From NCBI RefSeq assembly GCF_000195755.1, contig NC_002937.3:750001-782000 (forward strand): 32,000 bases of DNA, read 5' to 3'. The stretch comes from Nitratidesulfovibrio vulgaris str. Hildenborough. GTDB lineage: Bacteria; Desulfobacterota; Desulfovibrionia; Desulfovibrionales; Desulfovibrionaceae. The notes below the pieces were generated by a model that did no database searches, had not been told where the DNA came from, and was given only the letters and a program-made list of their open reading frames with translations. This document shows, piece after piece, positions 642 through 28,519 of the stretch. The first letter of the stretch is position 1. Every line of letters begins with the position of its first letter. Made by a program: the position numbers and the translations under genes.

Positions 642-2107
642 TATTTGCGGAGGCGGCGCAGCAGGGCGAAGCGCGAGAGGCCGAGAAGGGTGGCCGCGCG
701 GGTCTTGTTTCCGTTGCAGCGTTGCAGGGCCTGTTCTACGAGGCGTTCGACGAACTCATGCAGGTTCATGCCCTCGTCAGGGATGCGAAAGTCTTCCGGT
801 GTCGACGTGAGGACTTCGTTGGCAGGGGGGCCCTCGGACCCGGTCCTGTGGGACACATCGTCCGAAAGCCTGATGGGGAGGACGAGGTGCTCCGGGCGAA
901 GCAGCGTCCCGTCATGCAGCAGGACCGCGCGTTCGATGGTGTTTTCCAGTTCGCGGACGTTACCCTTCCAGACGGCGCTTTGCAGCAGGGCGAGTGCTTC
1001 ATCGTCGATGCCCGTGAATTGCTTTTTCTTGCGGGCGGCTTCCCGGCGCAGGAAGAGGGCTGCCATCTCCGGGATGTCTTCGCGCCTTTCACGCAACGGT
1101 GGCAGGATGAGGTGCCCGACCCGAAGCCGATGATAGAGGTCGCGTCTGAACAGGCCGTTTTCGACCATCTGCTCGAGGTCGCGGTTGGCCGCGCATACGA
1201 TGCGTGCGCGGAAGTTGCGCCGCTTGAGGCCGCCCAGCCTGTAGAAGGTGCGTTCTTCAAGGACGCGCAAGAGCTTGGGTTGCAGATGCAAGGGCAGTTC
1301 AGCCACTTCGTCCAGGAAAAGAGTGCCGTCGGCTGCCAGTTCGAGCTTCCCCGGCGAGCCTCCGCTCCGGCTTCCGGTGTAGGCTCCCGCCTCGTGTCCG
1401 AAGAGCTCGCTCTCGAACAGTTCGGTGGGGATGGCGGCGCAGTTGAGGTCGATGAAGGGCCTGTCGTCGCCGTCGTGTCCGAAATGGACGAGTCTTGCCA
1501 CGACCTCCTTGCCGGTGCCCGTTTCGCCTTCGACAAGGACGGGTACGGAAGGGTCGGCATGGAAGATGGCGGCTTCTTCGAGGATGCGCCGCATGGCGGG
1601 CGAGGCTGTGACGATGTCTCCGATGCCCGAGACGTTGCGAAGCCGCAGACGAGCCGCTTCAAGGTCCTGCCGCAATGCCGTTGTGGCCTGCGCAACACGT
1701 CCTTCCATGTCGGAACGGAGAGTGGCGTTTTCCGAGACCAGCGCCATATGCTCTGCACAGCGGTCGACCACGATGGCGAGTTCGCGGGCGTTGATGGGCT
1801 TGTTGAGGTAGTCGTAGGCCCCGCGTCGCAGGGCTTCCACGGCTGTCTCCATGTCGCCGTGGCCGGTGATGAGGACCACATTGCTCTTCGCCGTGGCCGT
1901 ATCCGACTTGAGGTGGGCGAGAAGCTCAAGCCCGTCCATGTCAGGCATGCGGATGTCGGTGATTATCAGCGGGTAGAACGTACGGGCCGCTTCTTCGATG
2001 GCCCGGTGCGGATGCGGCACGGCAGTGGCCTGATGCCCGAGGTCTTCCAGCACGGTGCGGAGGCTTTCGAGGCTGGTGGCGTTGTCATCGACTATCAGGA
2101 TGCGCAA
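641..2107 (-). CDS. sigma54-dependent response regulator (NtrC family enhancer-binding protein)
   Basis: REC domain (MRILIVDD...ITDIRMPDMDG). AAA+ sigma54-interaction domain (GETGTGKE, ESELFGHEAGAYTGS, LFLDEV). C-terminal Fis-type HTH (NKTRAATLLGLSRFALLRRLRK). TTG start at 2107 with GGAGA 7 nt upstream. Overlaps the upstream kinase gene by 13 nt. Confidence 0.95.
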   Translation of the reverse strand: MRILIVDDNATSLESLRTVLEDLGHQATAVPHPHRAIEEAARTFYPLIITDIRMPDMDGLELLAHLKSDTATAKSNVVLITGHGDMETAVEALRRGAYDYLNKPINARELAIVVDRCAEHMALVSENATLRSDMEGRVAQATTALRQDLEAARLRLRNVSGIGDIVTASPAMRRILEEAAIFHADPSVPVLVEGETGTGKEVVARLVHFGHDGDDRPFIDLNCAAIPTELFESELFGHEAGAYTGSRSGGSPGKLELAADGTLFLDEVAELPLHLQPKLLRVLEERTFYRLGGLKRRNFRARIVCAANRDLEQMVENGLFRRDLYHRLRVGHLILPPLRERREDIPEMAALFLRREAARKKKQFTGIDDEALALLQSAVWKGNVRELENTIERAVLLHDGTLLRPEHLVLPIRLSDDVSHRTGSEGPPANEVLTSTPEDFRIPDEGMNLHEFVERLVEQALQRCNGNKTRAATLLGLSRFALLRRLRK

Positions 2108-4026
2108 GACGGGTCTCCGTTATCAGGCGTTGGTGCCGGTCCAAGACCGGAAGGGGACGGGCGGGAAGCTGCAGGACACGGGGGGGCTGCCTCCGAAGCG
2201 TTGAGCATGATGGTGAAAACCGCCCCGGTTCGTGGGGGGCGCCTGCTTGCTGCGGTGATGGTGCCGCCCCACGATTCGACGAACCCGTGGACCAGCGCAA
2301 GGCCCAGCCCCATGCCGGAATGGGCGTCCTTGGTGGTGAAGAAGGGGTCGAACACCCTGTCCTCCATGAGGCCGAGACCGGGCCCGTTGTCCTCGACGGA
2401 GAGCGCGACCCGGTTTCCGTGGCGTCTTGCAGAGACGGTGATGTCGCGCGCAGGCTGTCGTGATGCGTCGAGCGCGTGCATGGCGTTGACGATGAGGTTG
2501 ATCAGGGTCTGTTCAAGCTGCACTGGAACGGCGAGCACATCAGGAAGGTCGGGCGCGATGTCGAGCGACGCGTCGATGCCGTGATTGCGCAACTGCGCCC
2601 CGATGAGACCGAAGGCCTCGGCACAGGCATGGGCGATGGACGTGGGACGACACTGGATATCACCGTGCGTGACCAGCGCCCGCATGTGCTCGATGATGTC
2701 ACGTATGCGGTCCGCCTCGCGCAGGATGCGCGACAGCCGTTCGAGGAGCATGTCGCGGTCGACCACAGGTCGCTTCTCCACCAGCATCTCAAGCCCCCCG
2801 GCATACAGCCGCAACGCGCTCAGGGGCTGGTTGATTTCATGCGCGACGCCTGTGGCCAGTGTACCCAGTGCCTCCAGCCTGCGCGCCTGTGCCAGTTGAC
2901 GTTCGACGCGCAGCCGGTCGGTCTCGTCGTCAAGCATGATGACGGCCGCTTCGACAGACTGGCCCTGCGTGGAGATGGGGCAGGCCTGTAGCCTGAAGTT
3001 GCGCTCTTCGGGCTGCCCCGGCAGGTGCAGTACGAAGCTGCGCTGGTGCGTTGCGCCGTCTCGGAAGACATCGATGGCCGGGCAGCCTGAACAGCGGCTG
3101 TTGCCATCACCGCAGAAGTCATGAAGCAGTCTGCACAGGGGCATGCCCACTGGGTCGAGGCCGAACCACTGCAACATGCGGGGGTTGGCCGCTTCTATGC
3201 GCAGGGCGGGGTCGATGACGGCAATGCCCTGCGCAAGGTTGTCGGTAATCGACCGTGAACGCTCCTCGCTGCGTGAGAGCGCTTCAAGGGCCTTCACGCC
3301 TGTGGTGATGTCGAGCCCCAGTTTGAGCACAAGGGATGAGCCGTCGATATCCTCGAAGGGATAGGCGTACACCCTGAAGGCCGAACCGTTCTTCCGGGTC
3401 CAGTCGCTGACGCAGAGTGTGCGGGTCTCGAAGACTTCGCATGGCGGGCAGTGCGCACAGGGCGTGGGACTGCCGCGCAGTACTTCGTGGCAGGCCTTGC
3501 CCACCCCGGGGCCGAACAACTGCCGAGAAGCCCTGTTCTCGTAGCGAATCCTGTGGTCGGAACCTATCAGCATCACGTATCCCGGCAGCCTGTCCAGAAG
3601 GTTGAGCAGGCGCGAGCGTTCACTGCGAAGGTCGCCGGTGGGTATGCTCTCGGCAAGCGGCAGCGGCATGGCGGCGATGGTGGCACCGCTGCCCACGGGT
3701 CTGGCCGCTATCTGGATGTGGACGGGGCCCGAACGGCCACGAAGCGTGAGTGCGAAAGGCGAGAAGTCGCCACTGGCCTGCCGCAGAATGGCCCGTTCTA
3801 TGGTCGGCAGGTTGTTCTCGGACGAGAGGTCCGCGAGTAGCCTCGTGAGGAACTCCGCAGGGGGCCAGCCCGTGAGCGGTTGCAGGACGGCAGCTGTGGT
3901 GCCGAGAGGGGAACCGGAGCAGTCGGGCGCATCGGAAAGCTGCTCGACGAGGCGCGCGACGGCGGACGAGAAAGGGGTGTCCCCTTCAAGGAAGGGGGGA
4001 CTGATGGCGGAGGGGGGCGTGGGCAT
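2095..4026 (-). CDS. cytoplasmic sensor histidine kinase with two Cys-rich PAS domains
   Basis: H-box HEINQPLSAL and a HATPase_c domain (DNGPGL, GMGLGLALV). No TM segment seen. I chose the ATG at 4026 (MPTPPSAISPP...), 2 nt after the upstream gene stop (TGAccATG), because the longer ORF start at 4167 would overlap that gene by about 140 nt. Confidence 0.9.
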   Translation of the reverse strand: MPTPPSAISPPFLEGDTPFSSAVARLVEQLSDAPDCSGSPLGTTAAVLQPLTGWPPAEFLTRLLADLSSENNLPTIERAILRQASGDFSPFALTLRGRSGPVHIQIAARPVGSGATIAAMPLPLAESIPTGDLRSERSRLLNLLDRLPGYVMLIGSDHRIRYENRASRQLFGPGVGKACHEVLRGSPTPCAHCPPCEVFETRTLCVSDWTRKNGSAFRVYAYPFEDIDGSSLVLKLGLDITTGVKALEALSRSEERSRSITDNLAQGIAVIDPALRIEAANPRMLQWFGLDPVGMPLCRLLHDFCGDGNSRCSGCPAIDVFRDGATHQRSFVLHLPGQPEERNFRLQACPISTQGQSVEAAVIMLDDETDRLRVERQLAQARRLEALGTLATGVAHEINQPLSALRLYAGGLEMLVEKRPVVDRDMLLERLSRILREADRIRDIIEHMRALVTHGDIQCRPTSIAHACAEAFGLIGAQLRNHGIDASLDIAPDLPDVLAVPVQLEQTLINLIVNAMHALDASRQPARDITVSARRHGNRVALSVEDNGPGLGLMEDRVFDPFFTTKDAHSGMGLGLALVHGFVESWGGTITAASRRPPRTGAVFTIMLNASEAAPPCPAASRPSPSGLGPAPTPDNGDPSCAS

Positions 4027-4028
4027 GG

Positions 4029-6032
4029 TCAGTCTGTGGTGTGTTCGATGGGGGGCACTTCCGTCGTGCCCATGCCGGACAGAATGAGGCCGATGGTGCG
4101 CGAGAGCAATGATTCCAGTCGTGGAACGAGTTGCCTTGCTCCTGCGGTGTCGTCTTCGACAAGGCACAATCCCACGCGTTCCGTCAACATGGCAAGGGCC
4201 ACGGCGCCAGCATGCTCCGAAGCGAGGCGCAGCCGTTTGTTGAAGCGTGCGGCTTGTTGTGCGTCACCTTCTTCAAGGGCTCCGGCGAGCAGAGCGAAAT
4301 GCCGGGGGGCCTCATCGCAGAACGCCTTCCAGACCGGTTCGACAAGGTTGTGGTCTCCCCCGTGCCGCCGGACGACCTCGGACGGGGCAAGCAGGGCCGA
4401 CCTGTCGGGGATGACGGGAATGTCCCGCGCAGACGATGCCGAAAGGGCGAACCTGTCGAGCATGGCGTTGAAGGCTCGGGCGTTGATGGGCTTGGCGATG
4501 TAGTCGGTCATGCCCGAAGCCAGGAAGCGTTCGCGGTCGCCCTTGAGGGCATGTGCCGTGACGGCTACGACGGGGATGTTGCGGTCGACTCCGGGGTACT
4601 GGGCGTTGCGGATGCGTCGCAGCAATTCCAGCCCGCCCATGGGGTGCATCTTGACGTCCAGCAGGACGAGGTCGAACCGGTCGGCGGTGAGTCGCTGGAG
4701 GGCCGTGGCACCATCGTGGGCGCAGGCACAGACATGCCCTCTCTTGCGGAGCATCTTGCAGGTTATCGTCCGGCCCGTGGCGTCATCGTCCACCACCAGC
4801 ACCCGAAGCGGGCGTGCTCCTGATGCGGGTGTCGCTGAAGAGGTCGGGGCCTGAGCGTGTTCGGAAGGTGTGTTGATGGCAGGCGTCTCGGGCCGTAGAC
4901 GGCAGGTGAAGTGAAAGCTGCTTCCCTGTCCTTCGCTACTGCGGGCCCATATGCTGCCGCCCATGATTTCGACGAGGTTTCGGCAGATGGCGAGACCAAG
5001 CCCCGTGCCGCCATAGCGTTGGACCGTCTCTTCTGCACCCTGGCTGAACGCCTCGAAGATGGTGCGGAGGTGTTCATCGGCGATGCCGATGCCCGTGTCG
5101 CGAATGGAGAACAGCAGGGTGAGGCTTGAGGGCGGCCCGTCGGGAAAGAGCGATTCGAGAAGCGTCTGGTCCTGGGGGATGGCGCTCACTTCGATGATGA
5201 CCGAGCCCTTGTGGGTGAACTTGACGGCATTGCCGACGAGGTTGGCGAGTACCTGTGTAAGGCGTGTCGCGTCGCCTGTCAGTCTGTCCGGGACATCGGG
5301 CGTTACACGGAAGTCCAGGGAGATGTTCTTGCGTTCGGCTTCCGACCGCGATGCCTGCACAACCTGCTTCAGCAGTCTATCCAGTGAGAAGGGACGTTCC
5401 ACAAGCCGCAACTGGCGAGCCTCAAGCCGGGAGAAGTCGAGCACGTCGTGCAGCAGGGTGAGCAGCGTCTCGGAAGATGCAAGGACGGTGTTCAGGCTTT
5501 CGCGTTGTTCGCCCGACAGCGGGGTATCGAGGACCAGTTCCGTCATGCCCACGATGCCGTTCAGGGTGTTGCGTATTTCGTGGCTCATGCCTGCGAGGAA
5601 CGACGTCTTCGCAAGGCTGGCATGTTCCGCAGCCTGTCGGGCTTCGTCGATTTCGCGAACGGCCCTGTGCTTGAGCAGGGCGACCTCGATGGTGGAGTAG
5701 AGTTCGCGTTCGGCAAAGGGCTTGACAAGAAAGCCGAACGGCCCGGCTTTCATGGCCCTTGAGAGGGTCGCTTCGTCGGAGAAGGCGGTGAGAAAGACGA
5801 CAGGAATGTCGAACTGGTTGGTGATGACATGGGCGGCGTCTACGCCGTCACCGCGCCGCAGGCGGATGTCCATCAGAACGAGGTCCGGCCTGAGACGCTT
5901 CGCCGCATCGATGGCTCCGTCTGCATCCGTCTCGACGGCAGGCACTATGTACCCAAGACCTTCGAGCGTGCGCCGTAGATCAAGTGCGACGATCTGTTCG
6001 TCGTCGACGACGATGATACGAAGATTCGGCAT
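4029..6032 (-). CDS. hybrid histidine kinase: REC - HisKA/HATPase - REC - HPt-like tail
   Basis: N-terminal REC (RIIVVDDEQ...LVLMDIRL). H-box SHEIRNTLNGIVG. G2 box GTGLGLAICRNLVEIMGG. Second REC (RVLVVDDD...LVLLDVKM). C-terminal four-helix HPt-like region. ATG at 6032 (MPNLRIIVVDD) preceded by GGAG; the ORF-track start at 6086 is TTG with no RBS. Confidence 0.9.
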   Translation of the reverse strand: MPNLRIIVVDDEQIVALDLRRTLEGLGYIVPAVETDADGAIDAAKRLRPDLVLMDIRLRRGDGVDAAHVITNQFDIPVVFLTAFSDEATLSRAMKAGPFGFLVKPFAERELYSTIEVALLKHRAVREIDEARQAAEHASLAKTSFLAGMSHEIRNTLNGIVGMTELVLDTPLSGEQRESLNTVLASSETLLTLLHDVLDFSRLEARQLRLVERPFSLDRLLKQVVQASRSEAERKNISLDFRVTPDVPDRLTGDATRLTQVLANLVGNAVKFTHKGSVIIEVSAIPQDQTLLESLFPDGPPSSLTLLFSIRDTGIGIADEHLRTIFEAFSQGAEETVQRYGGTGLGLAICRNLVEIMGGSIWARSSEGQGSSFHFTCRLRPETPAINTPSEHAQAPTSSATPASGARPLRVLVVDDDATGRTITCKMLRKRGHVCACAHDGATALQRLTADRFDLVLLDVKMHPMGGLELLRRIRNAQYPGVDRNIPVVAVTAHALKGDRERFLASGMTDYIAKPINARAFNAMLDRFALSASSARDIPVIPDRSALLAPSEVVRRHGGDHNLVEPVWKAFCDEAPRHFALLAGALEEGDAQQAARFNKRLRLASEHAGAVALAMLTERVGLCLVEDDTAGARQLVPRLESLLSRTIGLILSGMGTTEVPPIEHTTD

Positions 6033-6155
6033 GTATCTCCGGTTCCGGGTTTCTTCGTGTATGCCCCGAAAAGGCTTCACATGCAAGGCGCGCCAAGGCC
6101 CGGAAAAGGCAGGAACGGCCCGGATTCCACGTGAGGGCTGGCGGTGAAGGGGCGA

Positions 6156-6251: not shown

Positions 6252-6950
6252 TCAGATGCGCTGGAGCACCCACACGATACGCCCGAAGATACGGTCGGCG
6301 TGCTGGTCGATGGGCAGATACTGCTCGGGGTGGGTGGGATTCTCTGTCCGGAGGATGAACCGGGCATTGGCAGCATCGAGGAACACCCGCTTGATGGCGA
6401 CACCCTCGAAGGGCATGAAGACGCCATAGAGTTCGCCCGAGACGATGTTCTTCTGGGTGGTGTCTATGCCGACGAAAGCACCCTTGCCGATGACGGGTTC
6501 CATGGCGCCTGCATCCACACGCACTATCTGCGTTCCGGGGGCGGCAAACGACTGGGGTACGGCAAGTTTGGCGATGGCCGTGAGCGGTTGCGAAACACCG
6601 TTCTCGTCGACAGCGCAGCCCATGGCGAACACAGTGGCGACACTGCTCTTGGCATCAGGGTCGCCGTAACGCGCGGGGTCTTCAAGCACGAGTCCGGCGA
6701 CGGGGGCGTCGAGCGGTTCATACCCCTGGTCGGTACGCAGGTACATGGGGCCGGAGCCCTTCTTGAGCCAGTCAGGATTCAGCCCGAACTTCTCGAACAG
6801 TTTCATGTACCAGTCGGAGGGGACGGAGTTGCGTCGTTTGGCGTCTGATATGCTCGACTGGCGAATGTCGAGGACTTCCGCCAGCTCGACCTGCGTTCTG
6901 GTGTTCGTGGCGAGCTTGATGCGCTCAAAGACTTCATCGAACGTAGACAA
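6252..6950 (-). CDS. phage CI-type HTH repressor with S24 (LexA/CI) peptidase-like C-terminal domain
   Basis: The N-terminus STFDEVFERIKLATNTRTQVELAEVLDIRQSSISDAKRRNSVPSDWYMKLFEKFGLNPDWLKKG looks like a CI-repressor HTH. The C-terminus VRVDAGAMEPVIGKGAFVGID...VAIKRV is an S24 fold. I chose the TTG at 6950 with GGAGAA 5 nt upstream. ATGs at 7040 and 7097 lie inside or upstream of the predicted promoter, so an annotated start could differ. Confidence 0.8.
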   Translation of the reverse strand: MSTFDEVFERIKLATNTRTQVELAEVLDIRQSSISDAKRRNSVPSDWYMKLFEKFGLNPDWLKKGSGPMYLRTDQGYEPLDAPVAGLVLEDPARYGDPDAKSSVATVFAMGCAVDENGVSQPLTAIAKLAVPQSFAAPGTQIVRVDAGAMEPVIGKGAFVGIDTTQKNIVSGELYGVFMPFEGVAIKRVFLDAANARFILRTENPTHPEQYLPIDQHADRIFGRIVWVLQRI

Positions 6951-7038
6951 TGCTTTTCTCCGGGCGGCGAAGCCGGGCCTGGGGCCTGGGCATCGCCTCT
7001 GATCTGAGTGCTCTCGTCTGTAGGGTATCCTAGCTACC

Positions 7039-7067
7039 ATTATAGACGAGTGCAACACTATTGTTGA
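7039..7067 (-). promoter_or_regulatory. sigma70-type promoter with overlapping palindromic operator for the repressor gene
   Basis: Minus strand TCAACA (7067..7062), 17-nt spacer, TATAAT (7044..7039). The palindrome CAACActatTGTTG (7053..7066) overlaps the -35 element. Confidence 0.45.
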
Positions 7068-7135
7068 AGAAGAGTACGCTCCGCGCTCCGGTTGCATGGA
7101 GCTAAAGGTCTTGCGTATGGCGTACTATGGCGAGC

Positions 7136-7200
7136 AAAAATCGGGCCACCAACGTGTCTTCGTGGAATCTCCAGCGAAGTGGCACGTATGGTGGCCCGAT
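7136..7200 (-). terminator. probable hflC terminator (long-loop hairpin plus U run)
   Basis: Minus strand AUCGGGCCACC (7200..7190) pairs with GGUGGCCCGAU (7150..7140), followed by a U run (A5 on the + strand at 7136..7140). The large 39-nt interior may fold further. Confidence 0.5.
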
Positions 7201-7278
7201 GTGTCACAATCGGAAGCCGATAGTGTCACACATGTTACATGTCTGTCTCGCTCATCTGTAACATGTCATGCGACACAA

Positions 7279-8130
7279 TCAGGGGCGAATCGGCTTGAGC
7301 AGCGGGTCATCGGGGGTGAGCACGAACCGCGTACCCTCTTTCAGCGAGTTGCGCAGCGTCTCAAGCCCGCGCATGAACTCGAAGAACTCGGGTGCCTGAC
7401 CGTAGGCGTTCGCGAAGGTGCGCGTCGCCACGGCGTCACCCTCACCACGGATGATCTCGGCCTTCTGGTTGGCTTCCGCCAGCAGTACGGCCCGCTCACG
7501 GTCGGCCAAGGAGCGGATCTTGGTCGACTCTTCCTGTCCTTCCGAGCGATATTGCTTGGCTTGCCGTTCGCGTTCGGCGCGCATGCGTCCGAAGATGGCG
7601 CGCTGGTTCTCGGCGGGCAGGTCGGTTCGCTTGATGCGCACGTCGATGACCTCCATGCCGTATTCGGACATGAGTTCAGAGGTGCGACGTGTCACTTCGG
7701 TCATGATCTCTGCACGCTTGGAGGCGACCACTTCGGTGAGGGTATGCCGTCCCACATGGACACGCAGCTGCGAGTAGACCATGTCGTCAAGGCGGGTCTG
7801 GGCACCGGGAATGGTCCGTACGGTGCGGTAGAAGGTCAGCGGGTCGGTGATGCGCCAGCGTGCGTAGTTGTCGAGTACGATGGCCTTCTTGTCGCTGGTG
7901 AGGGCCTCGGCGGAGCGGGCGTCATAATCGAGCATCCGTGCATCGAAGAAGATCACGTTCTGTATGAAGGGCAGCTTGAAGTGCAACCCCGGCCCGGAAA
8001 CTTGTCCGACAGGTTCACCAAGTTGCAGTACGATGGCCTTCTGCGTCTGGTGCACGGTGTAGAAACTCTGCCCGCCGATGATGAACACGGCCAGCACGGC
8101 AATGAGGAGGGTGAGGCTCTTGCGGCTCAT
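7279..8130 (-). CDS. hflC: HflC, band-7/SPFH modulator of FtsH protease
   Basis: MSRKSLTLLIAVLAVFIIGGQSFYTVHQTQKAIVLQLGEP... shows a single N-terminal TM segment plus an SPFH domain. ATG at 8130 with GGGAGG 8 nt upstream, 1 nt after the hflK stop. The ORF-track start at 8202 overlaps hflK. Confidence 0.95.
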   Translation of the reverse strand: MSRKSLTLLIAVLAVFIIGGQSFYTVHQTQKAIVLQLGEPVGQVSGPGLHFKLPFIQNVIFFDARMLDYDARSAEALTSDKKAIVLDNYARWRITDPLTFYRTVRTIPGAQTRLDDMVYSQLRVHVGRHTLTEVVASKRAEIMTEVTRRTSELMSEYGMEVIDVRIKRTDLPAENQRAIFGRMRAERERQAKQYRSEGQEESTKIRSLADRERAVLLAEANQKAEIIRGEGDAVATRTFANAYGQAPEFFEFMRGLETLRNSLKEGTRFVLTPDDPLLKPIRP

Positions 8131-8131
8131 G

Positions 8132-9268
8132 CTAGTTGCCTCCCTTCGTACCGGTCTGTGGCGCGGGTGTGAGTCTGTCCAGCGGCAGATAGGGCAGGAC
8201 ACGGCCTGCGGTCTCGCGAGGCAGGATGATGCGCTCGACGCCGTTGCGCGAGAGAATCTCCTGCATGGTCTCGAAGTACAGGCGCTTGCGCGTCACGTCC
8301 TTGGCCGCGTTGTATTCCTTGAGCACGGCGATGAAGCGTTGGGCCTCGCCTTCGGCCTGTCGGGTGCGGGTCTCTCGGTAGCCTTCGGCCTGGTTGACGA
8401 GTTCAGCCGCCGCGCCACGGGTGCGGGGCAGGAGTTCGTTGCGGTAGGCTTCGGCCTCGTTGACGATGCGGCTCTTGTCCTCGCGGGCGGAGGCGACATC
8501 CTTGAAGGCGTCGATGACCTCCTTGGGCGGGTGCACGTCCTGCATCTGAACTGCGAGCACGCGGATGCCAACCTTGTATCGGTCGAGAATCTCCTGAAGC
8601 AGCGTCGTCGTTTCGTTCTGGATACGAAGCTTGCCGTCAGTGAGTGCCGCGTCGATGAGGCTGTTGCCGATGATCTCGCGCATGGCCGCCTCCGCGGCAT
8701 TGCGGACTACGGCCGCCTGGTCGGTGACGTTGAAGAGGTACTCCACAGGGTCCTTGATCTGATACTGCACGCTGAACTGCACGTTGACGATGTTCTCGTC
8801 ACCGGTCAGCATGGCGGCCTCTTCGGGGAAGACGCGTCCCTGTCCCTGCTGGAAGGTGGCGCCCTGCGTCGGCGAGCGGAATCCTATCTCCACCCGTTGC
8901 ACCTGCGTCACCTTGGGCTTGTAGACCCGTTCAACAGGGAAGGGCAGGTGGTAGTGCGGGCCGGGGCCGACAGTACGGTCGTACTGTCCGAACCGGAGCA
9001 CCACCCCTGCTTCGTCGGGGTTGATGATGTAGACACCGGAAAGAAGCCACAGGACGGCCACAGCCGCTGCGGCAAGTTTGCCGGTAGGAAACGGGAATTC
9101 GCGGAAGCGGCGGAACGAATCGCCAAGCTTCTCGAAGTCCGGCCCGGAGGGCGGAGGCGTATCGCCTTGGTCGCCGCCACCCCAGCCGCCCGTCTGCCGC
9201 TGCCGTTTTTCTTGCAGTTTGTCCCAATCCCAGTTCATAATACTGAAAAAATAGGGCAGTTGTTGCAT
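8132..9268 (-). CDS. hflK: HflK, band-7/SPFH modulator of FtsH protease
   Basis: Gly-rich N-terminus, TM segment (AAAAVAVLWLLSGVYII) and SPFH domain, directly upstream of hflC. The start is uncertain: ATG at 9268 or the in-frame ATG at 9238 (MNWDWDKLQEK...). Neither has a clear SD. Confidence 0.9.
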   Translation of the reverse strand: MQQLPYFFSIMNWDWDKLQEKRQRQTGGWGGGDQGDTPPPSGPDFEKLGDSFRRFREFPFPTGKLAAAAVAVLWLLSGVYIINPDEAGVVLRFGQYDRTVGPGPHYHLPFPVERVYKPKVTQVQRVEIGFRSPTQGATFQQGQGRVFPEEAAMLTGDENIVNVQFSVQYQIKDPVEYLFNVTDQAAVVRNAAEAAMREIIGNSLIDAALTDGKLRIQNETTTLLQEILDRYKVGIRVLAVQMQDVHPPKEVIDAFKDVASAREDKSRIVNEAEAYRNELLPRTRGAAAELVNQAEGYRETRTRQAEGEAQRFIAVLKEYNAAKDVTRKRLYFETMQEILSRNGVERIILPRETAGRVLPYLPLDRLTPAPQTGTKGGN

Positions 9269-9319
9269 CAGGTCAAGGCAAGACCTCGGCGCGGACTGCT
9301 TTATGGAGGATGAGCCATC

Positions 9320-21578: not shown

Positions 21579-21807
21579 TGCGTCTGAAAGAAAGGCTGGC
21601 ATCTTTCGCGTGACAGTCGGTATACGACACGTTCGAAAGACGCTGCCCGAGAACTTCGATGCGTATCTAGGGCAGATGATGCCGGAAGGGGCGCAGGCGC
21701 AGCCGCTCTTGCAGGCGGCCCTGCGCACCTGCTTCTGACGCGGTTGGCGCGCCAGATGGTGAAGCCTCGCCATCCGCCGTCGAGTTGCGTCCTGCCAGTA
21801 TGTGCCT

Positions 21808-23226
21808 CTACTTCGGCTTTCTACCGTAGACGTCCTCGAAGCGGACGATGTCATCCTCCTCAAGGTATGGGCCGCTTTGCACTTCGATGAGTTCCAGCGG
21901 AATCTTGCCGGGGTTCGATAGCCTGTGCATGGCGCCGCGCGGGATGACGGCCCACTGGTTCTCGGTGAGGAGGGTCTCGGTCTCGCCCACCTGCACCAGT
22001 GCCGCCCCGCTGACGACGACCCAGTGTTCGCTGCGGTGATGATGCATCTGCAGGGAAAGGCGCGCGCCGGGAAGCACGGTGATGCGTTTGATCTTGAAGA
22101 GTTTGCCCTCTTCGAGAACAGTGTAGCTGCCCCACGGTCTGTGCACGGTGAGATGGACTTCGGCAAGCGAACTGCTCTCGGCCTTGAGCAGTTCAACGAC
22201 ATCCTTCACCCGTTGCGTCTTGTCGAGGGCACACACGAGGGTGGCGTCACGGGTCTGCACGGCGACGATGTCCTTGAGGCCGATGCCGACAAGCTTTCCG
22301 CCCCTCGAGAAGAGCATGGAGTTTTCACAGTCGAGGGCCATGGTGTCACCGCGGCGCACGCAGCCCGATTCGTCTTTCTTGCCCAACCGGTAGAGGGCTT
22401 CCCAGCTGCCGAGGTCGTCCCAGCCGAAGTCCGCCTCCACGACGGCGATGCGGCTGGCGTGTTCCATGATGCCGTAATCCACCGAGATGGAGGGGATGGA
22501 TGTATAGCCTTCGATGAGCGGACGGTCGCCCCTGCTTTCCCACCAGTGACCAAGGTCGGACTGGTGCGCGTGCACGGCTTCGATGAGGGACTGGCCGTTG
22601 AAGACGAACATGCCACTGTTCCAGAAATAGCGGCCATCCTTCAGGTAGGCCGTAGCTGTGGCATGGTCGGGCTTTTCGACGAAACCTTCGACCTCGAACG
22701 ACCTGTCTGCGATGCTGTCGCCGCGACGGATGTAGCCGTAGCCGGTCTCGGGATGCGTGGGCGGTACGCCGAAGGTGACGAACCAGCCGTCATCGGCAAG
22801 GCGTGTCGCCTCATCGAGGGCGGCTTGCCATCGAGGGATGTCGCCCAGCATGTGGTCGGACGGAAAGACGGCGATGGTGGGCGGTGTCTCGCCTCCGGTG
22901 GCCCGCCATGCGGCGTCGAGGCCGAGAAGGATGGCGGGCAGGGTATTGCGCCCGCGCGGTTCGGCGATGACACCGGCTTCAAGACGCGGGTCGAGGGTGC
23001 GGGCCTGCGCCCGGACCTCGAAGACGTGTTCTTCGTTGGTGACGACGTGGATGTGGTCGGGCCGGAAATGGGTGAGCGCGCGCTTGAGGGTCTCCTGCAA
23101 CAGGGTCAGGTCGCCATTGAGCGCGATGAGTTGTTTGGGGAACAGAGAGCGCGAAATGGGCCAGAGGCGAGTGCCGGAACCTCCGGCGAGGATGATGGCG
23201 TGACAGGCGGGGGACTGCGCGTTCAT
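21808..23226 (-). CDS. manC: bifunctional mannose-1-phosphate guanylyltransferase / mannose-6-phosphate isomerase (type II)
   Basis: N-terminal nucleotidyltransferase motif AIILAGGSGTRLWPISR and a C-terminal cupin (HHHRSEHWVVVSGAALV). ATG at 23226 forms an ATGA overlap with the rfbC stop. The ORF-track extension to 23355 overlaps rfbC. Confidence 0.93.
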   Translation of the reverse strand: MNAQSPACHAIILAGGSGTRLWPISRSLFPKQLIALNGDLTLLQETLKRALTHFRPDHIHVVTNEEHVFEVRAQARTLDPRLEAGVIAEPRGRNTLPAILLGLDAAWRATGGETPPTIAVFPSDHMLGDIPRWQAALDEATRLADDGWFVTFGVPPTHPETGYGYIRRGDSIADRSFEVEGFVEKPDHATATAYLKDGRYFWNSGMFVFNGQSLIEAVHAHQSDLGHWWESRGDRPLIEGYTSIPSISVDYGIMEHASRIAVVEADFGWDDLGSWEALYRLGKKDESGCVRRGDTMALDCENSMLFSRGGKLVGIGLKDIVAVQTRDATLVCALDKTQRVKDVVELLKAESSSLAEVHLTVHRPWGSYTVLEEGKLFKIKRITVLPGARLSLQMHHHRSEHWVVVSGAALVQVGETETLLTENQWAVIPRGAMHRLSNPGKIPLELIEVQSGPYLEEDDIVRFEDVYGRKPK

Positions 23227-23795
23227 GCGTGCTCCGTGTCGGGAGTGAAGCTGAAGGGGGTGCGAAAGTCGCGGAAGGTGCCGTGCCGCTGGTCTTTGGC
23301 AGACAGGATGGGTGTCATGTCGGGCCATGTGATGCCGATGTCCGGGTCGTTCCACGGCAGCCCCTGTTCCAGTGCCGGGGCATAGTAGGCGTCGACCTTG
23401 TACATGACCTCCGTTCCCGGTTCGAGCGTCATGTAGCCATGGGCGAAGCCGCGTGGCACATAGATCCGCTGGAACGATGCGGCGGTGAGGGTGCAGCCGA
23501 ACCAGCGTCCGAAGGTGGGCGAGCCCTCGCGCAGGTCGACGGCGACATCATAGATGGAACCCTGGACGGCCCAGACGAGTTTTGCCTGCGTCATGGGAGG
23601 AAGCTGAAAATGCAGCCCGCGCAGGACACCCGCATCTTCCGAACGCGCGTGGTTGTCTTGCACGAAGCGCTGACCGTGCGTCAGGGTGTCGAAGAACGAC
23701 TCCCGGTAGGTCTCAAGAAAAAAGCCACGTTCGTCCCGGTGGGCCTGTGGCGTAAGCAGCCGTAACCCGGGAAGTCCGGTTTCTGTGATGTGCAT
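23223..23795 (-). CDS. rfbC: dTDP-4-dehydrorhamnose 3,5-epimerase family (RmlC cupin)
   Basis: LLTPQAHRDERGFFLETY..., VQDNHARS...GVLRGLHFQ and YVPRGFAHGY are characteristic RmlC motifs. AAGGA RBS. Confidence 0.93.
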   Translation of the reverse strand: MHITETGLPGLRLLTPQAHRDERGFFLETYRESFFDTLTHGQRFVQDNHARSEDAGVLRGLHFQLPPMTQAKLVWAVQGSIYDVAVDLREGSPTFGRWFGCTLTAASFQRIYVPRGFAHGYMTLEPGTEVMYKVDAYYAPALEQGLPWNDPDIGITWPDMTPILSAKDQRHGTFRDFRTPFSFTPDTEHA

Positions 23796-23971
23796 AGGAC
23801 ATCCTTCATGCGTTTTTCAGCACCCTAACCGAGGCGTCGCCTTTTTTGAAGAGGCGGGGTAGAATAAGAGTCTATTGCCGTGCTCAGACAGATGGGGTAG
23901 GTAGCTGATTGTTTGTATCTCCATAACATGATTTTCTTTATATATCAGTGAATACCGTGGGGGCGGGAGGA

Positions 23972-25650
23972 ATGGCGAGAGAGTTACACACTGACGGGGA
24001 AGGCGATACTGCGGCCCATGCGCGCATCGCTGCACTTGAGGCCGAGGTTGAGGCCTTGCGTGCACGGGAACGGACGTTGCGCGATATTCTTCTTTCCATT
24101 CCCGACATGATCACCGTGCACGACCGTAACGAGAGCATCGTGTTCAGCAACTGGAAGGGTGACGACCTCTACTGGGAGAACCTTGGCGGTGAACGGCACG
24201 GAAGTCGGTGCTACGGCTGCTACTTCAGGGGGGAGAAGCAGTGCGACGCCTGTCAGATTGCCGAAGTCTTCGATACGGGCGTGCAGAAGAGCATCGAGCT
24301 TTACAACCCCGAGATTCGGGCCTTCAGGTCCATCACGGTCTTCCCGGTACACAACGCCGCTGGTGAGGTCGTGATGGTGGCCGAGTATGTGCGGGACGTG
24401 ACCGCCACGCGGCGTATGGAACGCGAACTGCGCGTTGCCAAAGAGGCGGCAGAGGCCGCGGACAAGGCCAAGAGCGAGTTTCTCGCCTCCATGAGTCACG
24501 AGATACGCACCCCCATGAACGGAGTGCTCGGCATGCTCGACCTTGCGCTCGATACGCGCCTCGACGATGAGCAGCGCGATTATCTCGAGGCGGCACAGAA
24601 TTCGGCCGAATCGCTGCTCGCGCTCATCAACGACATCCTCGACTTCTCCAAGATCGAAGCCGGCATGGTGGAACTGGACAGTCAGGCCTTCAGGCTACGT
24701 AAACGCCTCTCCACCCTGCACACCATGTTCGTGCACCGGGCAGAGGAGAAGGGCCTCGCCTTCGGGTTCCGCATCGGTGAAGAGGTGCCGGACGGGCTGG
24801 TGGGCGACCCCATGCGGCTGCGACAGGTGCTGGTCAACCTGCTGGACAATGCCATCAAGTTCACCGAGCAGGGGCGGGTCTATCTGGACGTGCAGCTTGA
24901 TGCAGCCCAAGGCGCGCTTCCGGCCGAAGGCGAGCCGATACTCCTGCGTTTTTCGGTCACGGACAGCGGGCCGGGTATTCTGGAAAGCCATCGCGAGCAT
25001 ATCTTCGAACGCTTCGTGCAGGCCGATGGTTCGCTGTCGCGCAGGCATCGCGGCACGGGGCTGGGCCTTGCCATCTGCAAACGGCTGGCGACGCTCATGG
25101 GGGGGACATCACGGTGGAAAGTGCTCCGGGCAGCGGCAGCACGTTCACCTTCACGGCGTCGTTCGAACGCGCCTCCTTCGACGGTGCCGCTGACGACCGC
25201 AAACTGGCGCGTCAGCCGCAGAAGCCCGTGACCCCGGCGCGCATCCTCGTCGCCGAGGACCATCCCATGAACCTCATGTTCATCGAGAAGCTTCTTGCCA
25301 AGCAGGGCTACGAGGTACACACCGTCACCGATGGCACCGAAGTGCTGCCCGCGTTGCAACGCGAGCGGTTCGACCTTGTACTCATGGACATCGCCATGCC
25401 GGTCATGGACGGTATCGAAGCTACCCGTAGTGTGCGTCAGGCCGGGAACATGATCACGGACAAGAACGTGCCCATCATCGCCATGACAGCCCATGCCATG
25501 AAAGGCGACCGTGAACAGTTCCTTGCCGCAGGCATGGACGACTACATCGGCAAGCCCATCAATTCAGACAATCTCTGCAACATGCTGCTGAAGCACCTGC
25601 AGCGTGCGCGCAGGGCGGCGGAGTGCGCTTCGGCGTCATCTCCGGCTTGA
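23972..25650 (+). pseudogene. hybrid PAS sensor histidine kinase / response regulator, interrupted by a 1-nt frameshift in a G7 run
   Basis: ORF 23948..25231 carries a coiled coil, a Cys-rich PAS domain, the H-box [13 protein letters not shown] and GTGLGLAICKRLATLMGG, then runs into nonsense. ORF 25114..25650 in the -1 frame continues with (DIT)VESAPGSGSTFTFT and a complete REC domain (ILVAEDH...LVLMDIAMP...K). The join is at GGGGGGG, 25099..25105. The start is uncertain (GTG at 23948 or ATG at 23972). Confidence 0.8.
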
Positions 25651-25706
25651 CCGGGAGCGCGCCAGAGGGCATAACGCCCCGGACATGCCCCTGCGGGGGC
25701 AGATGC

Positions 25707-25798
25707 GGAAGGGTGGCAGAGTCCGGTTTATTGCGGCGGTCTTGAAAACCGTTGTGGGGGGAACCCCACCGGGGGTTCGAATCCCTCCCCTTCCGCCA
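25707..25798 (+). tRNA. tRNA-Ser (anticodon UGA), CCA encoded
   Basis: Cloverleaf by hand: acceptor GGAAGGG/CCCTTCC; D arm GCAG..TTGC with a GG loop; anticodon stem GCGGT/ACCGT with loop CT-TGA-AA; long variable arm (TGTGGGGGGAACCCCACCG); T arm GGGGG-TTCGAAT-CCCTC; discriminator G plus CCA. 92 nt. Confidence 0.95.
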
Positions 25799-25816
25799 GA
25801 ACGATGTTTACAGAGT

Positions 25817-25857
25817 GCCCGCAAGTGCCAAAAAGCGCTTGCGGGCCTTATGTTTAT
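25817..25857 (+). terminator. terminator after tRNA-Ser
   Basis: GCCCGCAAG-(12-nt loop)-CTTGCGGGC followed by the T-rich CTTATGTTTATG. Confidence 0.6.
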
Positions 25858-25876
25858 GCGTGTTTCGAGTGGCGGG

Positions 25877-25944
25877 GAGTGACAGCGAGTGACAGCAAAT
25901 CGCGTTGACAGCCGGGGCAACTGGGGGGCAACTTTGGGGGCAAC
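25877..25944. repeat. cluster of short direct repeats (iteron-like)
   Basis: GAGTGACAGC twice in tandem (25877..25896), a third TGACAGC at 25906..25912, then GGGGCAAC three times (25914..25921, 25925..25932, 25937..25944) at 11-12 nt spacing. Confidence 0.7.
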
Positions 25945-26009
25945 GAAGCGCAGCTTGCAGGCCGTGCCCCATCTTCCGCAAGTCATCGTTCTGCCATCGT
26001 AACGAAGCG

Positions 26010-26040
26010 AACCCGCAACTGCCTGCGACAATTGCGGGTT
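26010..26040 (-). terminator. possible terminator of the chemoreceptor gene
   Basis: 9-bp stem AACCCGCAA/TTGCGGGTT with a 13-nt loop, 23 nt after the stop at 26063. The U tract on the minus strand is weak (CGCUUCGUU). Confidence 0.4.
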
Positions 26041-26062
26041 CCTTTCTGATTCCGGTGCCAGC

Positions 26063-28519
26063 CTACTGCTGCCCCACCTGCACCATCTCCCGGATGACCT
26101 CGCGCAGTTCCTGTGCAAGGCGGCTCAGTTCCGTGACCGCTTCGGCGGACTGCGCCATGGCCTGTGCCGTCTCGGAGGCGATGGCACTTATCTCGTCACT
26201 GGCCCTGTTGATCTCTTCGCTGGCGGCGGACTGCTGTTCGGCCGCTGTGGCGATGTTCCGAACCTGGTCGGCAGTCGTCTCGACGATGCTGACGATGGTG
26301 CCGAGCGCCTTGCCCGCCTCTCCGGCAAGCCGCGTACTCTCGCCCACTGCCTCGGCCGCCTTGTCCATCTCCTGAATGTTTCCCCGTGCGCCGGACTGGA
26401 TGGCGTGTACGGCCTCGCCCACCTCCCGGGTGGCGTTCATGGTCTTTTCGGCAAGCTTGCGCACCTCGTCTGCGACAACGGCGAACCCTCGTCCCGCCTC
26501 GCCCGCACGGGCCGCTTCGATGGCGGCGTTGAGGGCCAGCAGGTTCGTCTGGTCGGCGATGTCGTTGATGACCACCATCACCTGACCGATGGCGTCGGCT
26601 TGCACGCCAAGGGTCTCAAGACTGTGCTTGAGGGTCTCGGAGCGTTCTCGCACCGTGCCGATGGCATCGACGACCCGCTGCACCACCTCTTCACCGGAAC
26701 GCGCCTGCCTGATGGCGGTGTCTGCCTGTTCCGCCGCAAGTGAGGCGTTGCGCGCCACCTCCATGGTCGTGGCGTTCATCTCCTCGATGGCGGTGGCACT
26801 CTCCGTGGTGCGTTCGCGCTGGATGTCGGACCCTCGCGCCGACTCTTCGACCTGCGAGGCTATCTCCGTCGCGGCCGATGACACCTGCTGCGAGATGGAG
26901 TCCGCGTGGTCAGCGGCCTTGGAGATGGCTTCGTTGGTGCGGCGTATGGCCTCCTCCTGCCGCTTGAGGTCGGTGAGGTCGAGGAAGAGGACGATGGCGC
27001 CGATGGCGTTGCCGTCGCGGTCATGGAGAGGGGCTGCCGTCAGCCGTGCCGTGCGCAGGTCTCCCTTCTTGGTTCGCAGGTTCTCTTCGGTCTGGGTCTC
27101 CTTGCCGTGCGAGATGGCGAGGGCAGAGCATGTCGGGCATTCATCTCCGAAAAGCTCTTCGGCCTTGCGTCCCTTCGACCAGTATTCGACCGGCCTGGGT
27201 TCGGCCATGTAGGTGATGAGATGGTCGTTGACGAAGGTGATGTCACCCTGCCTGTCGGTGGTCACCACGGGAATGGGAATGGCCCGCAGCACCCCTGTGG
27301 CGAAGCCGAGGCGTTCTTTCAGTTCTGTCACCATGCGGCGGATGGCTTCGGCGAGTTCGAGGAGTTCCCCCCTGAAGTCCCCGGCGAGTTGTGCGTCGAG
27401 GTCACCGCTGGCGATGTTGGCGGCAAAGTCGCGGATGGACGCCACGGGTCGCGTGACCGAACGCGCCACCAGCCACGCCACCCCGAGCATGACAAGGGCC
27501 ACAAGCAACGCCCCGCCCGAGAGGGCAAGGTTCAGGGTACGCACCGGCTGGTGGACTTCGGCTTCATCGATTTCGGCGATGAGTGCCCAAGTCGTGTCAC
27601 CGACCTTGAGCGGCGCGTAGACCGAAAGCACAGGGTTGCCGTTGTAGTCGTTGATGATGCGCGCGCCCGACGTGCCCGTCAGTGCGTCGCGGCTGGCTTC
27701 GGTGTCGACGCCGTTGCGTTCCACCGTTCCCGCGAACGAGGCGTTGACGGTGCGTCCCTTGGAATCGAGGAATGAATCTGACCTCATGCGCTTGTCGGGG
27801 CCGACGAGGTAGGTCTCTCCGGATGTGCCCATGCCGGAACGTTCCTGCATGATGGCGTTGATTTGCTCGTTGGAAATCTGGAGGACGACGACGCCTGCGA
27901 CCGTCCCGTCGAAGGTGACAGGGGCTCCGGCGAACATGGCGGGAGCCCCCTGGGAGGGCTCGTAGGGCTTCATGTCCGACATGGCGGGCTGACCGGTCTG
28001 CATCACTCGTCGCCATACGTCGCGCAAGGGAGTGTCGATGCTTCCGGCTGCGGACGCGAAGTCGTTCTCCTTGGCCACGGAATAGACCACGTCACCCTTG
28101 GTGGCATCCAGCAGCAGGTCGTAGAAGCCTGTGGTCGATACGAAGTCGGCAAAGCCCTTGTGCAGCCTGTCATGTACGGCTTTGTACACTGGCGGGGCAT
28201 CGAACCTGCCGTTGGCGTATCCCTTGAAACCGCCCCCCACACCGCCCGCAGCATTGAATGTCGTCGCAAGGTCTCGAAACGCAGGGCCCAGCCAGGGCGA
28301 ACGGGCAGCGGTCAGGACGAACTGCTGACGTTCTTCGAAGAAGAGTCGCATCTGGTTGCCCTTGATGGTGCGGATGGCCGTGAGGCTGTCGTAGGCTTGC
28401 CGCATCAGCGCATCACTGCTCAATGTGGCGGCCCACAGACCGATGACGATGACGGGCGCGAGGCCAGCCAGCAGGAACAGGACGAGAAGCCTGTTACGCA
28501 TGGAATCGAGAAGGTGCAT
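26063..28519 (-). CDS. methyl-accepting chemotaxis protein (double-Cache sensor, HAMP, PAS, MA domain)
   Basis: N-terminal TM segment, a roughly 300-aa periplasmic Cache-like region, a second TM segment, HAMP, PAS (with CPTC), and the signalling domain with the highly conserved [40 protein letters not shown] at 28519 with GGAGG 6 nt upstream. Confidence 0.95.

Follow-up and report, generated by a model that had tools for sequence, protein, structure and literature searches.

The -1 frameshift sites of dnaX and of the IS3/IS911 family bring together an X_XXY_YYZ heptamer and a meaningful continuation in the -1 frame, within a conserved two-frame arrangement that has its stimulator and its trans-frame product. 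Not every heptamer of that general form serves well: in E. coli the G_GG.G_GG.N heptamers are outside the efficient motifs, and G_GG.G_GG.U in the absence of a stimulator gives just 0.018% (PMC4066793). Of another kind are the poly-G contingency loci of Campylobacter, Neisseria and Haemophilus, where the length of a poly-G tract inside an ORF sets the frame. Nearest of all to what is described below is the Desulfovibrio vulgaris pseudogene DVU0699, annotated as such in GenBank and with a partial match to PF02518 (HATPase_c) (Venter et al. 2011, PLoS One 6:e27587, Fig. 2C; PMC3219674). The peptides found for it in that proteogenomic survey map to a single ORF covering part of the gene, in one frame only, and translation was interpreted as ending at an in-frame stop, short of the end of the gene model (PMC3219674).

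To which of these does a hybrid sensor kinase gene broken at a run of seven G belong? The gene is in a 32,000-nucleotide stretch of the genome of Nitratidesulfovibrio (Desulfovibrio) vulgaris Hildenborough (NC_002937.3, positions 750,001 to 782,000), here called the window, and its features are collected in Table 1. It matches DVU0699, a probable identification drawn from the published description, the neighbouring gene and the numbering of the Qrc operon, which we take to be DVU0692-0695. The partial PF02518 match, the early in-frame stop and DVU0700 as neighbour are common to both, with no difference of substance; DVU0700 is listed in the literature as a chemotaxis gene, which fits the adjoining 818-aa MCP gene at 26063-28519. 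The pseudogene is already annotated and published, and what is added here is the mutational path (GGT to GGG, one G then being lost), a census of the alleles among strains, and the stability of the allele in resequenced lines. Literature searches for an authentic frameshift in Hildenborough, or for a pseudogene together with a histidine kinase and a frameshift, returned nothing relevant.

Table 1. Features of the disrupted kinase locus (window coordinates; residue numbers are those of the intact protein)
Feature	Coordinates	Strand	Remarks
Upstream ORF	23972..25231	+	419-aa truncated product P0121 = WP_223295135.1
PAS-like sensor domain, residues 42-148	24095..24415	+	PAS_4 match E 6e-4, below gathering score (weak)
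Cys80-x2-Cys83-x7-Cys91-x2-Cys94 motif in PAS-like domain	24209-24253	+	
HisKA dimerisation/phospho-acceptor domain	24467..24664	+	E 5e-24
HATPase_c ATP-binding domain, residues 278-397	24803..25161	+	E 3.5e-29
G7 homopolymer, site of 1-nt deletion	25099-25105	+	8 G here in close relatives
-1 frame continuation	25105..25650	+	residues 379-559
Out-of-frame tail, 41 codons and TGA stop of the truncated product	25106..25231	+	
Receiver-only ORF, 140 aa, called by gene finders	25228..25650	+	gene 3257-3679 in contig L007
Receiver (Response_reg), residues 425-539	25243..25587	+	E 7.5e-30

The upstream frame is open from a GTG at 23948, the likely start being the ATG at 23972 (MARELH...), and continues through ...LATLMGG, the protein up to the break reading ...GTGLGLAICKRLATLMGG. 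The G run stands in the context CTC ATG GGG GGG ACA TCA. P0121 consists of residues 1-378, which are authentic, and 41 out-of-frame residues that begin TSRWKVLRAAAARSP... and end at the TGA at 25229-25231. The -1 frame reads (GG)DITVESAPGSGSTFTFT..., which across the junction is GGDITVESAPGSGSTFTFT..., and comprises the last two strands of the ATP-binding (CA) domain, a linker and a complete receiver domain, with its stop codon at 25648-25650. When one G is inserted the two parts become a single 559-aa protein with PAS-like, HisKA, HATPase_c and Response_reg domains. The sequence-only reading of this DNA had it that the G run breaks a hybrid sensor kinase, that the upstream frame passes into nonsense up to a stop at 25231, that the -1 frame carries on the HATPase_c domain and an intact receiver to 25650, and that either an eighth G or a -1 slip would give LMGGDITVES; in all of these particulars it was right. 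However, it is the frame break, as seen against intact orthologues, that is the real feature and not the G7 run as such. There are five runs of at least seven G in the 32-kb window, which is below the chance expectation as estimated from base composition, and a G7 alone is statistically unremarkable. The mutation is real and the ORF is disrupted relative to the intact 559-aa orthologues, with 7 G being present in 16 independent assemblies.

What was the gene product before the break, and what does truncation take from it? The ancestral product is a soluble hybrid sensor histidine kinase, with a PAS-like domain carrying a four-Cys motif followed by HisKA, HATPase_c and receiver domains. The four Cys of the motif are kept in 8 of 10 Desulfovibrionaceae homologues, the two Halodesulfovibrio homologues being those that do not have them, and the AlphaFold confidence over the motif is low (pLDDT 43-56), as expected of a metal- or cluster-binding loop; the motif suggests a metal or redox sensor. 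The H-box, SHEIRTP, includes His176, which is invariant in the alignment of homologues. The N, G1 and G2 boxes of the HATPase_c domain (NLLDNAIKFT, DSGPGI and GTGLGL) are all present, and it is after Gly378 that the frameshift interrupts this domain, so that it is incomplete in Hildenborough and is complete in one frame only once a G is restored. The alignment of the intact protein with solved histidine-kinase structures extends to residue ~399. In the AlphaFold model a helix (364-375) after the G2 box is followed by strands at 380-385 and 389-400, with pLDDT of ~86-90, and the receiver spans residues 424-555. Both strands are past the frame break and so are lost along with the whole receiver, which is itself intact, with Asp473 and Lys528 conserved, but in the -1 frame relative to the kinase. 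The truncated product still has its PAS and DHp domains, together with the greater part of the ATP-binding domain. To judge from the fold, absence of the two CA strands and of the receiver most likely abolishes phosphorelay via this protein, and the truncated form most likely no longer works as a kinase.

With the sequence of the repaired protein as query, the matches were a cluster of N. vulgaris proteins. It agrees at every residue with P0122, a hybrid sensor histidine kinase/response regulator found on 40 contigs, among them that of strain DP4 (ABM29281.1). The neighbourhood in DP4 is the same as in Hildenborough: the minus-strand genes rfbC and manC are upstream of the kinase gene, the MCP gene is downstream of it, and a qrc-like operon is present. 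In DP4, though, the kinase gene is in a single frame, with ATG GGG GGT GAC at the site. That form is shared by CP116246 and many metagenome contigs as well as by DP4 (CP000527), and by an outgroup orthologue of 87% identity; L018, L020 and L023 have ATG GGA GGT GAC, and an outgroup orthologue of 71% identity has ATG GGC GGC GAC. An in-frame run of 8 G, ATG GGG GGG GAC, is found in L001-L006 (GCA_902167245.1 and the ERR33971xx runs), L015 and L034. The frameshifted form with 7 G, ATG GGG GGG ACA, is confined to Hildenborough-type contigs. The comparison of G-run length among isolates that had been proposed thus gives 7 G in Hildenborough-type sequences and either 8 G or an interrupted run in relatives, the run being interrupted in most strains, as GGGGGGTG or GGGAGGTG. 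When JGI metagenome contigs were scanned for the site (G6 to G8, or G6TG), a single contig came up, with the G6TG allele. No orthologue examined has the split, two-frame arrangement; all are single-frame. LMGG is conserved across the family, with M376 and G378 invariant and G377 and L375 nearly so, and over the 1680 nt of the gene no more than 4 synonymous differences and 1 nonsynonymous difference are seen within the species. The paucity of differences and the conservation of LMGG together argue that the intact gene is under constraint, i.e., purifying selection.

How close to the broken gene are the 8-G forms? Over 7.7 kb, L001 and the window are distinguished by 4 SNPs, a 3-bp indel and the additional G of L001. 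That L001 might be a Hildenborough revertant was considered and rejected, as there are private substitutions on both sides and it is accordingly a separate lineage. At the nucleotide level the gene of L015 is that of the window with one G restored. The impression from sequence alone that neither half is degraded was correct, and since the Hildenborough gene has no private change besides the missing G, the deletion is very recent.

In the light of these comparisons the locus is very probably a recent strain-specific pseudogene of Hildenborough, DVU0699, that arose by slippage deletion. The distribution of alleles across strains and outgroups makes a change of GGT to GGG, and then loss of one G in Hildenborough, the simplest path. 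The species-typical Gly-Gly codons after Met376 would have been GGG GGT, and a synonymous T-to-G change in one sublineage would have converted them to GGG GGG, creating a run of 8 G from which one G was lost in the Hildenborough lineage, most likely through strand slippage in replication. Ribosomes would then be out of frame after Gly378 and would terminate 41 codons further on, with the product still being translated in a truncated form, without the receiver and the final pair of strands of the ATP-binding domain. Of the three explanations that the sequence-only reading had put forward side by side, it is the recent inactivating mutation that stands, there being no amino-acid difference from DP4 once the G is restored; a sequencing or assembly error is rejected, and on/off or low-level expression from a slippage-prone tract finds no support, for reasons given below.

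Much depends on whether the short run is a constant property of the strain. P0121, the 419-aa product, is recorded on 184 N. vulgaris contigs, one of which is a chromosome of 3,570,858 bp. Sixteen contigs that bear either the truncated product or the downstream ORF (L007-L014 and L036-L043) were inspected as assembly consensus sequences; they derive from independent sequencing runs (SRR12056xxx, SRR11697787, SRR29008413, SRR5871742, SRR3212xxx and SRR7662575) and from the GenBank assembly GCA_036837945.1. All 16 have 7 G and match the window without a single difference (100% identity) along 0.9-5.3 kb. At this consensus level there are no differences in tract length among them, nor do assemblies break at the G run, as might hint at a mixed population; short contigs with just the downstream ORF all span the run, with 7 G. 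The 7-G allele is, at consensus level, fixed in every Hildenborough-derived assembly examined, though a minority of 8-G cells may be present in cultures.

Two other observations were made among these contigs. Two variants of the 419-aa product, P0128 and P0130, each on Logan contigs of ~6.5 kb, have a single Ala-to-Thr change (A158T and A217T, respectively), and so the pseudogene is now gaining nonsynonymous changes in some lines. In L035, a contig of 4265 nt from SRR12056389, window positions 21665-25058 are joined to the reverse complement of 25092-25969; the fold-back junction is ~40 nt ahead of the G run and gives an aberrant product of 413 aa (P0127). This is probably a chimera of library or assembly origin, though conceivably an inversion in an evolved line.

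Might the broken gene nevertheless be of service to its host? It is very improbable that the tract acts as a low-frequency switch between 8 G and 7 G within the Hildenborough clade, or that slippage by -1 at a background rate, or re-initiation where stop and start overlap (GTGA), keeps up a small but physiologically relevant supply of full-length kinase or free receiver. If that were so the 'pseudogene' would still signal, and the inactivation of the same gene by R284* in another genome, described below, could mean that switching the kinase off is selected under some conditions.

The stronger proposal, that the locus is a phase-variable one whose tract flips at high frequency between 8 G (ON) and 7 G (OFF), Hildenborough having been seen in the OFF state, is very improbable. 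G runs of 7-8 are mutable, which is in its favour, as is the occurrence of both 8 G and 7 G among very close relatives, and the intra-ORF position of a poly-G tract whose length sets the frame is just what is found in the contingency loci of Campylobacter, Neisseria and Haemophilus. Unlike the tracts of those loci, however, that of the kinase gene is not conserved in the species, a T interrupting the run in most strains, and its length is constant, at consensus level, among the assemblies of one strain (16/16 of the Hildenborough type, from several SRA series), with no contig breaks at the tract. A single event, 8 G to 7 G, suffices for all of the data.

Programmed -1 ribosomal frameshifting on G_GGG_GGG, or alternatively transcriptional slippage, would restore full-length kinase at a regulated level, and we judge this to be extremely unlikely. 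The appeal is evident: AUG GGG GGG provides what is formally a zero-frame X_XXY_YYZ heptamer, and slippage by -1 yields exactly the conserved LMGGDITVES, with LATLMGGDITVESAPGSGSTFTFTASFER as the predicted trans-frame tryptic peptide of the junction. With the heptamer and the meaningful -1 continuation, though, the resemblance to dnaX and IS3/IS911 ends, as the kinase locus has no conserved two-frame arrangement, no detected stimulator and no evidence of a trans-frame product, and its heptamer is a poor one. In orthologues the two Gly codons are mostly GGG GGT, or GGC GGC, and slippage is unnecessary. The 95 nt downstream of the site fold with a z of -1.2, and the region across the site with a z of -0.5, relative to shuffled sequences, i.e., no better than chance, and the same applies to a small hairpin that starts 8 nt past the G run. 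An upstream Shine-Dalgarno-like stimulator was not seen by eye. In E. coli the G-only heptamer is inefficient (PMC4066793), and the published peptides are in one frame only (PMC3219674). The proposal from sequence alone of a slippage-prone tract thus finds no support in the orthologues, in the folding, in the tract length among Hildenborough assemblies or in the peptides.

That the gene is in the course of fission, with the hybrid kinase becoming two genes of which the second, the receiver, is re-initiated at the GTG at 25228 and both parts are functional, is scarcely to be credited. Gene finders do call the 140-aa receiver-only ORF, which begins 5 residues ahead of receiver strand 1 and whose GTG overlaps the TGA of the upstream ORF (GTGA, 25228-25231), an overlap through which the receiver could in principle be made separately, and the upstream product is translated. 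Against this, the upstream product is without two core strands of the ATP-binding domain, making kinase activity unlikely, the arrangement is confined to a single strain, no Shine-Dalgarno-like sequence is seen ahead of GTG 25228, and no peptides from the downstream part are reported (PMC3219674).

Finally, homopolymers are classic error sites and L001, the closest relative, has 8 G, but that the real gene has 8 G and the reference is simply wrong has next to no chance of being correct, since 7 G recurs in 16 contigs from different runs and projects that match the window in all else, 184 contigs carry the truncated product, and published proteogenomics has translation ending at the in-frame stop.

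With the recent pseudogene as the explanation, the locus matters little except for keeping the records of a model organism in order. The reference strain for sulfate-reducer genetics, Hildenborough, is without a hybrid sensor kinase that is present in DP4 and in its nearest relatives, and the corresponding pathway is consequently absent from maps of its regulatory network and two-component systems. The locus also illustrates neatly how a silent change, GGT to GGG, makes a mutable homopolymer which then destroys the gene. The same gene has been inactivated independently in another genome of N. vulgaris type: in L034 (MAG GCA_023458815.1, JAEWXM010000320.1; contig positions 6840-6860, corresponding to window ~24821) a change of CGA to TGA, R284*, leaves ORFs of 283 aa and 274 aa on an 8-G background.

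A scan of 23600-26200 for promoters and terminators found no promoter-like sites, and terminator-like sites no commoner than in shuffled sequences. At 25707-25798 on the plus strand, 57 nt past the kinase stop codon, is a gene for tRNA-Ser(UGA) (Rfam 54 bits; ARAGORN), with a terminator-like hairpin after it at 25817-25846. The intergenic region that separates the tRNA gene from the MCP gene, whose 3′ end faces it, has short tandem repeats, a 10-mer x3 at 25866-25896 and a 12-mer x2.7 at 25914-25944. The MCP gene, on the minus strand, has a 3-bp (CAG) length polymorphism at window 28108 in a CAGCAGCAG repeat, with the protein being 818 aa in Hildenborough, L021, L022, L027 and L028, and 819 aa in DP4, L001 and others; substitutions private to Hildenborough are at 27074 and 27095.

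Elsewhere in the window, three hairpins at 340-470 have as their loops G runs of 7, 8 and 7 (359-365, 408-415 and 457-463) with a spacing of 49 nt, the 15 bp of the first stem (344-358 / 367-381) being perfectly paired. This stretch of 146 nt folds far better than shuffled controls (z -3.9, 0/200) and is upstream of an ORF starting near 504-581. There are two further sensor kinase genes, at 2095-4167 and 4029-6086, both on the minus strand and with ORFs that look intact; one encodes a kinase of PAS-HisKA-HATPase_c architecture and the other a hybrid kinase in which there are two receiver stretches, and G6 runs are in or near them at 3994, 4012, 4050 and 4304. An ORF at 6252-7097 on the minus strand has the helix-turn-helix of phage CI repressors and a Peptidase_S24 domain, i.e., it is LexA/CI-like, and it adjoins ORFs with no Pfam match (7096-9313); it may be what is left of a prophage, or else a regulatory island.
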